From Eledone cirrhosa (taxonomy: Eukaryota), in NCBI GenBank assembly GCA_964016885.1, contig OZ024754.1:44144001-44208000 (forward strand): 64,000 bases of DNA. The letters run 5' to 3'. Numbering within the stretch: the first letter of the stretch is position 1; every line of letters begins with the position of its first letter. Position numbers and translations under genes: made by a program. Below the pieces are notes generated by a model. The model was not told where the DNA came from and made no database searches. It worked only from the letters and a program-made list of their open reading frames with translations. Positions 2,957 through 27,153 of the stretch are shown here, in pieces.

Positions 2957-3022
2957 ATAAATAAGCTGATATCATTGATGTGACACTTATCAGTATGCTG
3001 ACCACCAGCCAAATAGTAAACA
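2957..3022 (-). CDS. Exon encoding hydrophobic (transmembrane or GPI-signal) segment
   Basis: Acceptor gttgttttctAG, donor GTAAGT; 66 bp, phase 1-1; VFTIWLVVSILISVTSMISAYL is 22 uncharged residues in the phase set by the previous exon. Confidence 0.65.
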
Positions 3023-4025
3023 CTAGAAAACAACAGAAAGATATTGAATAAGTAGAAGAATGTATATCTATGACAGGCGGCGAATTGTCAGATCATGAGA
3101 ATGGTTTCTCTCAGATACTTCTGGAACAAAAGAATGCTTGGGTCATCTACCAAGTGGCGTTTAGAAGGCTGTTTGCTTGCAAACAGACCGAATATTAACA
3201 TAATTGGTACTTCATTTTATCGACCCCGTAAGGATGAAAGGCTAAGTTAACCTCCACGAGATTTGAACTCAGACTGTAAAGGGACGTAACTATGCTAGAA
3301 AGCATGACCCTCCAACCCTCTACCGATACTGACGATTCACCGAATATTAATATAATATCATGATATTATTATAATATTATGATATTAATATAATATTATT
3401 GTTATTCACGAAAACATTTAGGTTTCCAACATGTTAACAGCGAAAACCACTTCTCTTATATATATGTATATATATTCTGGTTGGTCACTGTCTCTTACTG
3501 ATATTTAATGAAATATGTATATTAAAGAATTTCCCGATTAAACGGCTGAGCTTGTTCAGTATAGGTTAACAATTAATTCTGCTAACTGCGGCTCTTTATC
3601 AGAGATCAGAGACAAGAAATACGATTATAGAATGATGAAAAGAAAAGTAAATATAACTAAAGAAGACAGAAAGAAAGACTGTTAACAACTACAAGGGTCG
3701 GCTGAGAAGTTCATAGGTTGGACATTCAATAGGGTGACCAAATGAGGTTTATTTTTTAACATATATCAATGGATATCATCTGAGGATACCGTTCTCATAA
3801 CAACAACAAATGCATTAAGGACTTGTCGATTGCATGGAGAACCGTGGAAATAAGTTTAATGATTAAACGATTTATGTAACCTCAGCATCTTATTTTGTCT
3901 TATATATATATATATATATATATATATATATATATATATATATATATATATATATTATATATATATATATATAGAGAGAGAGAGAGAGAGAGAAAGCGAG
4001 AGAGAGATTTAAAGTTAAAACTTAC

Positions 4026-4079
4026 CCTTGTGACGAACAAAATTATCGAAACCATTCAATTCTGTGACGATAGAGGAGT
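4026..4079 (-). CDS. Short stalk exon after MAM2
   Basis: Acceptor tatctttgcAG, donor GTAAGT; 54 bp, phase 1-1; DSSIVTELNGFDNFVRHK, open in the expected frame. Confidence 0.7.
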
Positions 4080-4127
4080 CTGCAAAGATACAGGTAATTT
4101 GATATATAGTTTGTTTTTATCTTACAC

Positions 4128-4192
4128 ACACCTTCGGCGTTCGATCACACACCTTCGGCGTTCGATCACACACCTTCGGCGTTCGATCACAC
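4128..4192. repeat. 21-bp tandem repeat x3
   Basis: CACCTTCGGCGTTCGATCACA repeated. Confidence 0.9.
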
Positions 4193-22500: not shown

Positions 22501-24485
22501 CATGTTTATTCCCTTTCAGGAATTAATTAGTTGGAGTGAAATTTTAGTAAGTTAATTTTTATAATTTTCTTATTGTACGTCTTTCATATAATTGTTCTGC
22601 ATCCCCTTGCACTGAACCGTAAAGTTACTAAGACAGAACCTATATATTTGCTAGCATAGGTATGCATCTGTATATATATGTTGGTAGATATACTAATTCT
22701 TTATATATATATATATATATATATATATATATATATATATATATATATATGTTTTCACTTATATTGAATTCCAGCAGAGTGCAGGGTAAAGGGACCACTG
22801 TCGTGATAACGGCCATCAGTCAGAAATGATAATCAGCAGTTACCCTCTCTTGCTTCTGTTGGAATTCGCTAGATGGCGCTAAGCCATCGGCTCCCAAAAT
22901 TCATAGCTAATGGCTTTCAAATGTTTGTTCGTAAACATACCATATATCATTAGATATACAAAATATACATACTTATGCCCCCCCCCCATATATATATATA
23001 TGCTGAAAGAGAGAGAGAGAGAGAGAGAGAGAGAGAGAGAGAGAGAGAGAGAGAGAGAGAGAGAGAGAGAGAGAGAGAGAGAGAGAGAGATAGAGAGAGA
23101 GAGAGAGAGAGAGAAGTTAAGAGAAAATTGGTCAGCATAACTTTAACTCTTGATAAAAGAGTTAAAGTTATGCTGAATTAATATTAGCAACATTTGAGTG
23201 AGGGGGTTATCTAAGGGCTAAAGTGTTGTTAGGGTTACTGTGGTAGTGAGGGGTTAGCTGAGGGTTAAAGTGTTGTTAGGGTTACTGTGGAGGTTTGTTT
23301 GTGTGTGGTTAGTGACAGATAATGAGCAAATAATGGGGTTTGTTTGTGTGGCGATGTGAAAGGATTGATTTAGCTGTAGTAGTTTGGAAAAGACATCTGT
23401 TTTCTCTCAGCTAAGAATATTGACGAGACCTCTGCCAGATGCAAGAACAACAACTTTGCATATGGTCTCAGGTAGGTTTATATATAGAAATGTATAATGT
23501 ATGTGAGTGTGTATGTGTGTGAGAGAGAGTGTGTGTGTGTGTGTGAGAGAGAGAGAGTGTGTGTGTGTGTGTGTGTGTGTGTGTGTGTGTGTGTGTGTGT
23601 GTGTGTGTGTGTGTGTATGTGAGCGTATGTGTGTGTGTAAGTGCGTGTATGTGTGTGTGAGTGTGTAAGTGTGTATGAGAGAGTGTGTGTATGTGTGTGA
23701 ATGTGTGTGAGTGTGTGTTTGTATGTGTGTGTGAGTGAGTGTGTGCGAGCGTGTGTGGATGTGTGTGTGTATGAGTGTGTTTATGTAAATGTAGGAGTCT
23801 GCAACAGTATATGTATATATGTATGTATTCATGCATACACGTACATATATAGATATGCCAGCAATACTAAAAGAAACTAAAAACAGACACAGAGAATTAT
23901 GTTTTAGAATGAAGGCAGAATTTCAGTCCAAAACTCCAAATATTACTCGGGAAACCTTTAACCTTGACCCTAACCCTAACCTTGACACTAACCTTTGCAG
24001 ATTTGATTTACCAAAACAGACAAATATTATTTACCAGGGAACACATACAAATCATACCTGAATCTGCTAACGTTCACAGGAAAAGAATTTCACTAAAAAT
24101 ATGTCGAATCTTCATTGAATTCTTGCATAATTTTAGCAGTCATCTGAAGTTGTAGTTTCGAGTTAATTATTTCTAGTTAATTATTTCTAGTTAATTATTT
24201 CGAGTTAATTATTTCGTCTCACATCTCTGATCGAGCAAATTATGATGAAAGGCATTAAAGTATTTTCACACACACACACACACACACACACACACACACA
24301 CACACACACACACACACACACACACACTCCGCCAGACTTAAAATGCCCCCCGGGACCCAATCCTGACCAGACCAGACCAGATATCTTACAGAGAAGCACA
24401 GAAAGTGAGGAAGAGGAAGTGAGATAGAGGAAGAATTAACCCCAGTACTTGACTGGTACATTTTTTTAATCGACCTCGAAATAAT

Positions 24486-24688
24486 ATTGGTTTCTTATGT
24501 GGGCACAAGGCCAGCAATTTTGGAGGAGGGTAAAGTCGATTAAATTGACCCCAGTGCGTGACTGGTACTTTATTTTATCGACCCAGTAAGGATGAAAGGC
24601 AAAGTTAACCTCAGATCATAAAGGACCGTAACTCTATGCTGCAAAGTATGGCGTCCGACCCTCTGCCTATACTGCCAATCTACCGCCT
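24486..24688 (-). mobile_element. Same abundant SINE
   Basis: Flanked by CCTCGAAATAATA direct repeat. Confidence 0.85.
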
Positions 24689-26957
24689 CGAAATAATAAT
24701 ACCATGTATATTATTAGACATTAAACAATCTATATAAGAACACAGGTTTGATTGGTTTTCATGCAACAACGTCGTTATTTCTCAAAAAAAACAACAACAA
24801 CAAAAACAAACAAAAAACAAGACAAAAAAAAACAACAACAAAAACATCATCACAAAACTTCTTACAATAATTGAAATCTATTCAGGGTATCCAATGAACG
24901 GAACGTTTTCTAATCCGGTTTCCCATATCATGAAACGGATATTTTTTATAAATATAACAAGAGATGTAGAAAGAATGAACGTTCTATTGATGTTGGAGTG
25001 GGACTGGGAGAGAGAAAATAACATTCAGTTGAGGAGGAAGTAAACAAACATCATTTCTATCTTTACAATGACAACAATAATACTAATATTGATATTAAAC
25101 TACATTTTCCATTTATATATTTTTTGAGCAAACGTAAGAAATATTTCTTTTGGTAAATGCGAACAATTGAGGAATTTTCTCCAGTAAATGTTTGAATCTA
25201 TCTTCTTTGTATTTGAGAAAAAGTTCATCAAGTTTAAGTTCCTTGAACGGATTTCACACACAGTACATTATGGTGGCTGTTGTGGCCGTAATTCTGTCCC
25301 AGGCCAGTCCTTTGATCGTCGGACACCTGACGTAAGGCCCCGCACCACATAAATATCCGTTCCGATTTTCTCCCTTACAGACGGATCACCGAAACGGCCC
25401 AAACAGTCTGGAAATATTCTCCCATTTACAACCGAATACCTTTCTCCTCTTCGTGACCATCTTCATCGCTGATACCAGTCATGTACGTGGCTGGCACGAC
25501 AGGAAGGTAGAACGAATAGAAAGCTGTCTTGAATTTGACAATTTCAATTTATTTTTCTAAAGTGAATTTCTCAAAGATCAGCTGGTTCTCGGGTAGAGCG
25601 GTGTCCAAATCAAGCACACACACACACATATATATATATATATATATATATATATATATATATATATATATATATATATATATACACATACGTATATTGA
25701 TAGTCTCCGGAGTAAGTCTTTCTCTGTTCTGTCCACTGGAACCATGATGCGGAGCGGATTGCATCAAGAGCTTTTTCCCACATTGTCCAAACATATATTA
25801 TTAAACTACCGATGGTTTAAGTTGTTGATATTTATCAATGATTCATAATAAATATTTTTATGTTTTAGGTTAATGGTAAGCTATTTTATCCATTAAGACA
25901 AACAACAACAGCAACAACAACAATAGAGACATAAGGATTCTACGATTTTACGATTCTTTGATTCTTCGATTCTACAATTCTATAGATAACATTTGACACC
26001 TAAAACCTTTGACAGAAATATCGATTGTGTATATATGTAAAATAATATTGATATTTCTTTAGAGGTATTTACCTACTTTCTGATATTATTTCACATTTCA
26101 TATGATAGGGATTCTTAAGACACACACAACTTTCAGTTTCCTTTCATTATTTTCCTATAGTAAACATTTTTTATTCTGCTAGGAATGAAAAACGGATGGA
26201 AAATAAATAGCGAGAAAAAAATGATCACAGAAAAGCAAATAAATATACGCTATACATACGTGTGTTTATCTACTTAGGGATATATAACAATGTGTGTGTG
26301 TGTGTATATATATATATATATATATATATATATATATATATATAAAAGGAACGATCGACTTTCGTCAAATCGGACCGAGGGAACAGTGTTTCCGTTGGTC
26401 TTTCCAATTGCTAATACTATCTATCGGTCGCAACTCCAGGTAGAAGGAGCAACGTGAAATAAAGTGTCTTGCTCAAGGACATAACGCATCGCCTGGTCCA
26501 GGAATCGAACTCACAACCTTACGATTGCGAATCCAATACCCTAACCACTCAGCCACACGCCTTCATATATATATATATGTGTGTGTGTGTGTGTGTGTGT
26601 ATGTATATATATATATGTGTATATATGTATGAATATATATATATGTATATATATATATATATATATGTATATATATGTTTATATATGACAAGAATACTAA
26701 GATTACCTTTATCTAGTATATGTCAGCATTTTAGAGATACTAAAGTTATCTATTAGTCATAAAACATATAGTAACCGCAAAACTGAAAACAAAGTTTACA
26801 ATCTCGATTTTGTCACAGATATCCTTCCATATTTATAATCAGTTTTAGGTAAATCTTGAAAATCTAACATTGATATATTTGAAATCACTGTTTATGAAGT
26901 AATTAACCAAGCAATCAGTCAATCAGCCTTATATCCAATCAATTAATCGATACTTAC

Positions 26958-27153
26958 TCTTCATTTTCAACAGGTATTGCGTCCGTGTATTCCGTGAGGA
27001 TCTTTGATTCTGTCTGAATGACCAGTGAGACATTAACATTATGAGTTCGAATGCTGTAGAAAAACTGACAGTTGGTAGCCGAGTTATTAAACCAGGGACT
27101 GACCAGGTAAAAACTGTCGTTAAGTTTCAGATTATGAATGAGGGTCATGTATT
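26958..27153 (-). CDS. ALK: Exon of ALK-like MAM-LDLa-MAM receptor gene (MAM1, middle)
   Basis: Acceptor tttgtatttcAG, donor GTAAGT; 196 bp, phase 1 to 2; YMTLIHNLKLNDSFYLVSPWFNNSATNCQFFYSIRTHNVNVSLVIQTESKILTEYTDAIPVENE contains the MAM LxSP..C motif; frame-compatible with the next exon. Confidence 0.85.

Follow-up and report, generated by a model that had tools for sequence, protein, structure and literature searches.

ALK is a cancer-linked receptor, and a gene in the window analysed here (64,000 nucleotides of Eledone cirrhosa contig OZ024754.1) raises the question of what kind of ALK, if any, has a membrane segment that follows closely on its second MAM domain. Vertebrate ligands bind the TNF-like/glycine-rich/EGF module (GRD) of ALK, and the role of the MAM-LDLa-MAM part is described as unresolved, according to portions of two reviews (PMC10605310, PMC6274813). 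Here, the gene is judged quite probably to encode a receptor that descends from ALK and crosses the membrane once, with MAM-LDLa-MAM, a short stalk, a membrane helix and no GRD; its kinase is likely active and would be triggered by dimerisation via MAM-LDLa-MAM.

An earlier note on this DNA had proposed nine phase-consistent exons, and these hold up: all are on the minus strand, have AG/GT ends and agree in phase, and joined they read as 371 aa with no stop. The MAM-LDLa-MAM order of canonical ALK that the note read from them is upheld (Table 1), with MAM1 recognised by a custom profile only and the LDLa of the ortholog falling below the Pfam cut-off (PF00057, 16.6 bits, E 0.0097). MAM1 gave no Pfam match in either the window gene or its ortholog, but the first two exons match an ALK MAM1 profile built from a 16-sequence set (domain E 2.5e-08). 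The note had missed a tenth exon, 4964-4860, which is conserved in Octopus orthologs, carries two N-glycosylation sequons and one cysteine, and is assigned to the predicted gene model. With this exon included, between 5212 and 4079, the stalk is not 18 aa long as first thought but ~53 aa past the 5212 exon, and ~60 aa separate the end of MAM2 from the membrane. The hydrophobic segment stands as described: exon 3022-2957 encodes only uncharged residues (best 19-residue hydropathy 2.19), a membrane helix is also present in the structure model of the ortholog, and a search along the full minus strand for open phase 1-1 exons, 57-99 nt long and flanked by strong splice sites, yielded just two segments, this exon and part of the LDLa exon.

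Table 1. Features of the Eledone cirrhosa gene, in window positions
Feature	Position	Strand	Details
MAM1 middle exon (degenerate)	26958..27153	-	phase 1-2; matched by custom MAM1 profile
MAM1 end exon	18256..18386	-	phase 2-1; 57% identical to P0066 78-119
LDLa exon	13923..14042	-	phase 1-1; six cysteines
MAM2 start exon	13311..13463	-	phase 1-1; Pfam PF00629 (MAM), E 1.7e-06; 86% identity with P0066
MAM2 exon, proline-rich insert	6423..6547	-	phase 1-0; insert typical of ALK MAM2 (alignment)
MAM2 exon	5690..5865	-	phase 0-2; bears cysteine common to the molluscan ALKs examined
MAM2 end exon	5212..5306	-	phase 2-1
Tenth exon, stalk	4860..4964	-	105 nt, phase 1-1, 35 aa; gapless alignment to P0066
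Stalk exon, 18 aa	4026..4079	-	phase 1-1; spliced to transmembrane exon (X2 record 13)
Transmembrane exon, 22 aa	2957..3022	-	phase 1-1; donor GTAAGT used (X2 record 13, 0 differences)
Intron 3' of transmembrane exon	1..2956	-	no match in the window to the sequence of the next exon, allowing up to 3 mismatches

Upstream, the best scores for signal-peptide or MAM1-start exons in 27154-64000 were no better than those of shuffled controls. The open frames 22440-22111 and 19887-19705 were rejected as exons, having no fit in the ortholog, and the model aligns without them. A word-index protein search with exon 5865-5689 returned no candidate, a weak result because the orthologs are present in the collection searched.

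Both splices around the membrane exon are seen in a single 2,692 nt contig (X2 record 13), which has a depth of 9, comes from a single study and is presumed, from the splices themselves, to derive from RNA. It matches the window only at 2957-3023, with 0 differences; one loose end is the end of the stalk exon, which supplies the 4026-3022 junction that the earlier note had wanted checked, and the other is new in-frame basic sequence in which 9/10 residues are identical to P0066 416-425. Three local continuations listed in the note do all stop as it stated, but the contig uses none of them: its path runs from the 2957 donor to an exon outside the window. Of the gene's own cytoplasmic side, the first ten codons after the membrane exon are seen, and the contig continues for 1,289 nt, which leaves room for the 329 aa that P0066 needs to reach the end of its kinase. 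As in canonical ALK, one membrane helix leads into basic juxtamembrane residues. Exons for the juxtamembrane part and the kinase lie past the start of the window; the cytoplasmic part of P0066 gave one weak match in the window (E 0.036), on the opposite strand. The X1 run has no cover over the transmembrane exon and is uninformative there.

The ten-exon product shares 271 of 406 residues (67%) with the Octopus vulgaris 'ALK-like' protein P0066, and its orthologs bear a kinase (PF07714, E about 1e-90) of canonical ALK type that keeps the glycine loop, the VAVK lysine, the helix-C glutamate, HRD, DFG and three activation-loop tyrosines. The P0066 kinase appears intact and ALK-type by its motifs, and for the ortholog P0270 the best solved-structure matches are ALK kinases (369-383 bits), ahead of ROS1 (about 300) and IGF1R (about 253). 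The short architecture recurs in the gene models P0066, P0270, P0273 and P0271, which come from O. vulgaris, O. bimaculoides and O. sinensis, and the same architecture as the window gene is found in the orthologs CAI9730647.1 ('ALK tyrosine kinase receptor-like', O. vulgaris) and XP_052827396.1 ('uncharacterized LOC106883653', O. bimaculoides), both database predictions only; the literature searched makes no mention of LOC106883653. Judged from these close relatives, the window gene likely encodes an active ALK-type tyrosine kinase. In the ortholog model two beta-sandwich domains are seen, of which MAM2 matches the enteropeptidase MAM (Z 18.2, rmsd 2.3, 160 aligned), whereas residues 2-144, MAM1 being part of the larger model, are listed with beta-sandwich domains of a general kind and no others (Z 11.4 for the Eph ligand-binding domain); pLDDT in the stalk is about 42-54. 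The ESM Atlas offered only kinase-driven look-alikes and no model.

The GRD is absent from the window gene, as the earlier note had proposed. A GRD profile found none of 11 short-stalk sequences and all 5 controls (215-407 bits), and nothing among 2,502 window reading frames (best match 6 bits). The distance from MAM2 to the membrane, taken over 121 proteins, was 55-90 aa in 7, 340-434 in 110 and unmeasurable in 4. Since the module before the membrane is missing, the gene is classed as a variant of the ALK lineage and not as canonical ALK. In all 11 molluscan sequences a cysteine follows the same MAM2 strand and is accompanied by a stalk cysteine (counted in 10; read from the alignment for Solemya), and the linker that precedes the TNF-like domain is 29-69 aa long where the start of that domain could be located.

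The splice evidence also bears on two readings that would do away with the kinase or restore the module. The earlier note suggested a decoy or adhesion protein, kinase-less or GPI-anchored, that would end just after the hydrophobic segment, and read-through at the 2957 donor does meet a stop after 8 codons; however, the only X2 contig on the membrane exon is spliced onward to the basic cytoplasmic segment, X2 has no cover over 2909 to 2952 and the orthologs bear a full kinase, which leaves this reading extremely improbable, although a minor intron-retained form is possible because contigs drop rare variants. Very improbable too is an ordinary ALK that has glycine-rich exons plus another membrane exon outside the window, and of which the short form would be just one splice product. 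The intron after 2957 does run past the window edge, but the membrane exon joins the juxtamembrane exon directly, and P0066, P0270, P0273 and P0271 all lack the module. The note's truncated isoform is unlikely because three Octopus species, in their gene models, have the short stalk in common with five bivalve-type proteins.

Beyond octopods, the short-stalk architecture is found in heteroconch clams, while Solemya, oysters, mussels and scallops retain the module. The clam kinases (Ruditapes XP_060566739.1, Potamilus KAK3597818.1, Mactra KAL4238089.1, and Logan P0151 and P0221) resemble the octopus gene in MAM-LDLa-MAM, a 55-90 aa stalk with a cysteine, a helix, an ALK-type kinase and no GRD, but the best trees group them by themselves (100/99), separate from the octopus pair. 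These trees, rooted on 4 deuterostome ALKs with ROS1 and IGF1R separated by score only, nest the short-stalk proteins within lophotrochozoan ALKs (96/96), as descent from the bilaterian ALK gene predicts, and two label changes are needed. The stalk is poorly aligned in alignment A1, and P0278 was omitted from the second tree because its MAM2-end motif was not found. The trees favour two separate losses, and separate loss in octopods and heteroconch clams is rated as fairly likely.

The main competitor to separate loss is an old duplication in early molluscs that gave a GRD-less paralog kept by octopods and heteroconch clams, in which case a full-length octopus ALK may persist and do the usual signalling. 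It is unlikely but has points in its favour: one clade of all 7 short-stalk rows is not rejected by the AU test (p 0.191) and appears in 12-14% of bootstrap trees, the long octopus branch (1.47) suits a relaxed duplicate, and Owenia with two ALK proteins demonstrates that duplication occurs. However, no species examined shows both forms, in the best trees the heteroconch forms fall, with weak support (82/63 and 83/83), beside bivalve ALKs that keep the GRD, and octopus MAM2 retains in the alignment a proline-rich insert that is shortened in clam forms. Nor is a named cephalopod or heteroconch GRD-bearing ALK present in the best 120 of 890 matches to Solemya ALK, a weak point because gastropods are missing too, yet an Aplysia ALK is listed in the supplement of PMC7851593. 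A different rival, somewhat less probable again, dispenses with any soluble ligand: MAM-MAM binding on the same cell or across cells would make a kinase that adhesion or density switches on. In other surface proteins MAM domains bind homophilically, according to part of PMC6274813, and the bivalve-type P0151 and P0153 carry the LDLa-MAM unit in duplicate, as though this unit did the work; against this, MAM1 is degenerate, with the lack of a Pfam match noted above, and Jeb-like ligands are reported in the mollusc Aplysia (PMC7851593).

For the preferred receptor of ALK descent, the stalk may be the linker found ahead of the TNF-like domain in ordinary ALK and kept here, which would mean that the exons of the module were lost as one block. 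The stalk cysteine is probably bonded to the MAM2 cysteine, a predicted disulfide that would hold MAM2 near the membrane. As the glycine-rich ligand-binding region is missing, another route of switching on would be needed, and dimerisation driven by the MAM-LDLa-MAM part may provide it. Glycine mutations in the glycine-rich part of Drosophila Alk cause loss of function, as described in part of PMC6274813, so the module would have a role in signalling by Jeb as well, and Jeb may fail to activate the octopus receptor. The trigger is the least certain step, an even call: a secreted Jeb-like or replacement ligand might act on the MAM-LDLa-MAM unit, rather than MAM-MAM contact.

The literature searched, with most subscription papers and bioRxiv supplements outside it, holds no description of a GRD-less molluscan ALK. 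A natural MAM-LDLa-MAM-only receptor, present in two mollusc groups and with its kinase conserved, lends itself to a test of ALK activation driven by MAM-LDLa-MAM alone. If the losses were independent, the fate of Jeb in octopods and heteroconch clams, retained or gone along with the module, would point to the site of invertebrate ligand binding on ALK. A bolder claim, that both groups independently made their only ALK gene GRD-less and thereby prove MAM-LDLa-MAM to suffice by itself as the activation unit of an ALK kinase, is put forward tentatively and judged slightly more doubtful than not. Database names can also be corrected, as the clam member is labelled MALRD1-like and the O. bimaculoides member uncharacterized.

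Among known systems, MALRD1/MAMDC-type proteins share MAM and LDLa modules, and NCBI so names the Ruditapes relative. Those named families are not known to have a tyrosine kinase. They have many MAM-LDLa repeats, unlike the two MAM and one LDLa here, and the orthologs of the octopus gene add a kinase; the HRD kinase motif was found only in the 86%-identical ortholog among 150 proteins listed for the MAM2 exon. The note's preference for ALK kinship is borne out by the P0066 name and the P0270 matches. With human ALK, Drosophila Alk and the ALKs of Solemya, oyster, mussel and Lingula the gene shares MAM-LDLa-MAM, one helix, kinase type (in its orthologs) and tree position, but it has about 60 aa in place of 340-434 aa between MAM2 and membrane, a degenerate MAM1 and extra MAM2 cysteines. 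Mammalian LTK is also an ALK-family receptor minus half of its ectodomain, but it loses the opposite half, keeping TNF-like/glycine-rich/EGF without the N-terminal MAM-LDLa-MAM, according to part of PMC10605310. By its predicted architecture, the octopus gene is thus an ALK-lineage receptor kinase that mirrors mammalian LTK, a domain-loss variant of a known receptor and not a new kind of system.

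The window consists of animal DNA that is rich in AT and in microsatellites, and the nine exons that an earlier note had traced on its minus strand stand up to inspection: all have AG/GT ends, their phases match and they join into a stop-free product of 371 aa. The set was incomplete, however, as the Octopus vulgaris ortholog P0066 revealed an extra stalk exon; the resulting ten-exon model is identical to P0066 at 271 of 406 residues, with two one-residue gaps. An identity of 67% makes it likely that the window comes from a different octopod. In Pfam scans the 13463 exon matched MAM (E 1.7e-06) and the 5865 exon did so weakly (E 0.12), and with E values up to 1 admitted, 10 of the 14 frames still matched no family. 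A GTAAGT donor closes the last exon, which is hydrophobic, and the three local continuations past it each stop as previously claimed. Octopus MAM2 (exons 13463-13311, 5306-5212) carries extra cysteines absent from 20 other aligned ALKs, two near the domain start and two in a short loop near its end, which suggests lineage-specific disulfides.

Exons of the ALK-like gene in the window
Feature	Coordinates	Strand	Basis
Exon 1 of nine-exon chain	27153-26958	minus	AG/GT ends, phase
Exon 2 of nine-exon chain	18386-18256	minus	AG/GT ends, phase
Exon 3 of nine-exon chain	14042-13923	minus	AG/GT ends, phase
Exon 4 of nine-exon chain	13463-13311	minus	AG/GT ends, phase
Exon 5 of nine-exon chain	6547-6423	minus	AG/GT ends, phase
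Exon 6 of nine-exon chain	5865-5690	minus	AG/GT ends, phase
Exon 7 of nine-exon chain	5306-5212	minus	AG/GT ends, phase
Exon 8 of nine-exon chain	4079-4026	minus	AG/GT ends, phase
Exon 9 of nine-exon chain	3022-2957	minus	AG/GT ends, phase
Tenth exon, stalk	4964-4860	minus	revealed by P0066

Three sequencing runs of one study (X1, X2 and X3), none on record as RNA, partly match 5150-6600. Over 2865-3190, X3 reproduces the full genomic interval as a single piece and X1 does not cover the membrane exon, while X2 record 13 (2,692 nt, depth 9) matches 2957-3023 only, without differences. On the upstream side its loose end coincides with the end of the 4079-4026 exon, so the 4026-3022 joint, proposed in the earlier note, is seen in this contig. 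Downstream it runs on for 1,289 nt past the membrane exon, with a loose end whose sequence was not found in the window and which encodes, in frame, a basic segment identical to P0066 416-425 at 9 of 10 residues. The splice to the stalk exon and the basic sequence beyond show that the hydrophobic exon is in use as an internal exon and leads into cytoplasmic sequence. Upstream of it the record has 1,337 nt, room for the ten-exon model (1,155 nt) as well as for the nine-exon one (1,050 nt) once the roughly 170 nt of 5' coding sequence still missing are added, a length compatible with the extra exon being either included or skipped. From the two splices of this one contig we infer an RNA origin for X2.

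A protein search with the 13463 exon against 1.84 billion representatives gave 840 matches within an E limit of 0.001. P0066 (CAI9730647.1, named 'ALK tyrosine kinase receptor-like'), 86% identical to the exon, is the only one of the 150 listed matches to contain the HRD kinase motif; its cluster of eight includes O. bimaculoides and O. sinensis models. The O. bimaculoides ortholog, P0270, runs from a hydrophobic signal-like segment through MAM1, LDLa, MAM2, stalk and membrane helix to a kinase and a long, low-complexity tail. The kinase retains the glycine loop, VAVK, helix-C glutamate, HRD, DFG and three activation-loop tyrosines, their roles being those established for kinases. Against solved structures it scores best with ALK kinases, 27 sequences at 369-383 bits, and lower with ROS1 (296-301 bits) and IGF1R (about 253). 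The suspected relationship to ALK is supported by the ortholog and by this ranking, and the window gene probably encodes an ALK-lineage receptor kinase. A kinase-less or GPI-anchored decoy, as once proposed, is refuted by the X2 splice into cytoplasmic sequence and by the kinase-bearing orthologs.

The receptor nevertheless departs from canonical ALK in one defining feature, the TNF-like/glycine-rich/EGF module (GRD) between MAM2 and the membrane. This interval measures 55-90 aa in 7 of 121 relatives and 340-434 aa in 110; four gave no length (kinase loop motif absent in two, MAM2-end motif in two). A profile built from this region of 32 ordinary ALKs matched all five held-out controls (215-407 bits), and none of 11 short-stalk sequences, the window model being one of them; no score exceeded 6 bits among 2,502 window frames, bearing out the absence noted earlier. 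As the stalk exon is spliced to the membrane exon, 5211-4080 is the one place left for a GRD, and the 105-nt exon was all that turned up there. For ordinary ALKs in which the start motif of the TNF-like part could be placed, the linker between MAM2 and that start measures 29-69 aa, about as long as the octopus stalk, and we infer a block loss of the exons downstream of the linker. In each of the 11 molluscan sequences a cysteine follows the same MAM2 strand and another lies in the linker; 3 of 19 non-molluscan rows (two of the 19 unreadable) have one a few residues earlier in the strand and no linker cysteine. A molluscan disulfide between MAM2 and linker would be predicted.

ALK-like kinases with a short stalk are present in Ruditapes, Mactra and Potamilus as well, and two more are Logan proteins, one of which clusters with a Mercenaria fragment; the GRD is kept in Solemya, Magallana, Crassostrea, Mytilus, Argopecten and Ylistrum proteins. 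In trees of the kinase (32 rows) and of LDLa-MAM2 plus kinase (22 rows, rooted on deuterostome ALKs), the five clam-type short-stalk forms make one clade (100/99), weakly joined to GRD-bearing bivalve ALKs (82/63, 83/83), and the octopus pair stands apart on a long branch. Two label changes are needed for the short-stalk state, but one suffices in 12-14% of bootstrap trees, and a single origin was not rejected by the AU test (p 0.191). The best 120 of 890 matches to Solemya ALK include no GRD-bearing protein named from a cephalopod or heteroconch, and gastropods are likewise absent; neither these 120 nor the 120 listed in the other search for relatives include a named ALK from a gastropod, squid or cuttlefish. 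A gastropod ALK does exist, that of Aplysia being tabulated in the supplement of PMC7851593, yet is unlisted, so the lack of a GRD-bearing cephalopod protein in the list gives weak support to the short form being the sole ALK of octopuses.

Other ectodomain arrangements were observed. Ahead of the membrane, P0153 (Ruditapes) and P0151 (Logan) both have a tandem duplication of the LDLa-MAM2-stalk unit, and P0153 bears the NCBI name MALRD1-like despite its ALK-type kinase. The scallop ALK P0278 (Argopecten) is listed with an SRCR domain (PF00530), and its MAM region matches poorly; it is another molluscan ALK ectodomain change.

Elsewhere in the window, a perfect inverted repeat (8947-9479; two 263-nt arms, 100% complementary, 7 nt between) sits within the 13311-6547 intron; a recent fold-back duplication and an artefact of assembly are both candidate origins. 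Broken minus-strand frames at 9626-10898 resemble endonuclease and reverse-transcriptase C-terminal pieces of what we take from motifs to be a LINE, with no Pfam family at E 0.01. Weak mariner-type transposase remnants (18666-18941 and 41319-41666, minus) gave Mos1 HTH at E 0.0098 and DDE_3 at E 0.0016, neither of which reaches the cut-off. A GC-rich island spans 50001-54000 (58% and 48% GC against about 33% around); the one frame checked there had no Pfam match.

An AlphaFold2 model of P0270 24-470 (58 sequences, mean pLDDT 81.8, pTM 0.73) contains two domains of beta-sandwich type, a stalk modelled at low confidence that includes one helix, and the membrane helix, its MAM2 resembling the enteropeptidase, meprin and neuropilin MAM domains (Z 15-18). 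Dimerisation is what activates receptor tyrosine kinases (PMC10605310). Loss of the fragment known to bind ligand leaves MAM-LDLa-MAM as the sole folded part outside the cell, so activation, if regulated from outside, would have to pass through it. Contact between MAM domains is a candidate trigger that we consider doubtful; we favour a secreted ligand, Jeb-like or new, and give it an even chance. Glycine mutations in the glycine-rich part of Alk from Drosophila abolish function (PMC6274813), which counts against a simple Jeb story for the octopus receptor. In the available portion of PMC7851593 molluscs are mentioned for Jeb only and Octopus nowhere, and no description of a GRD-less molluscan ALK was found in the literature searched (PMC5171696 was among that consulted), which lies mostly outside subscription papers; genome-paper supplements may list these proteins. 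Among known systems, the window receptor is the mirror image of mammalian LTK.
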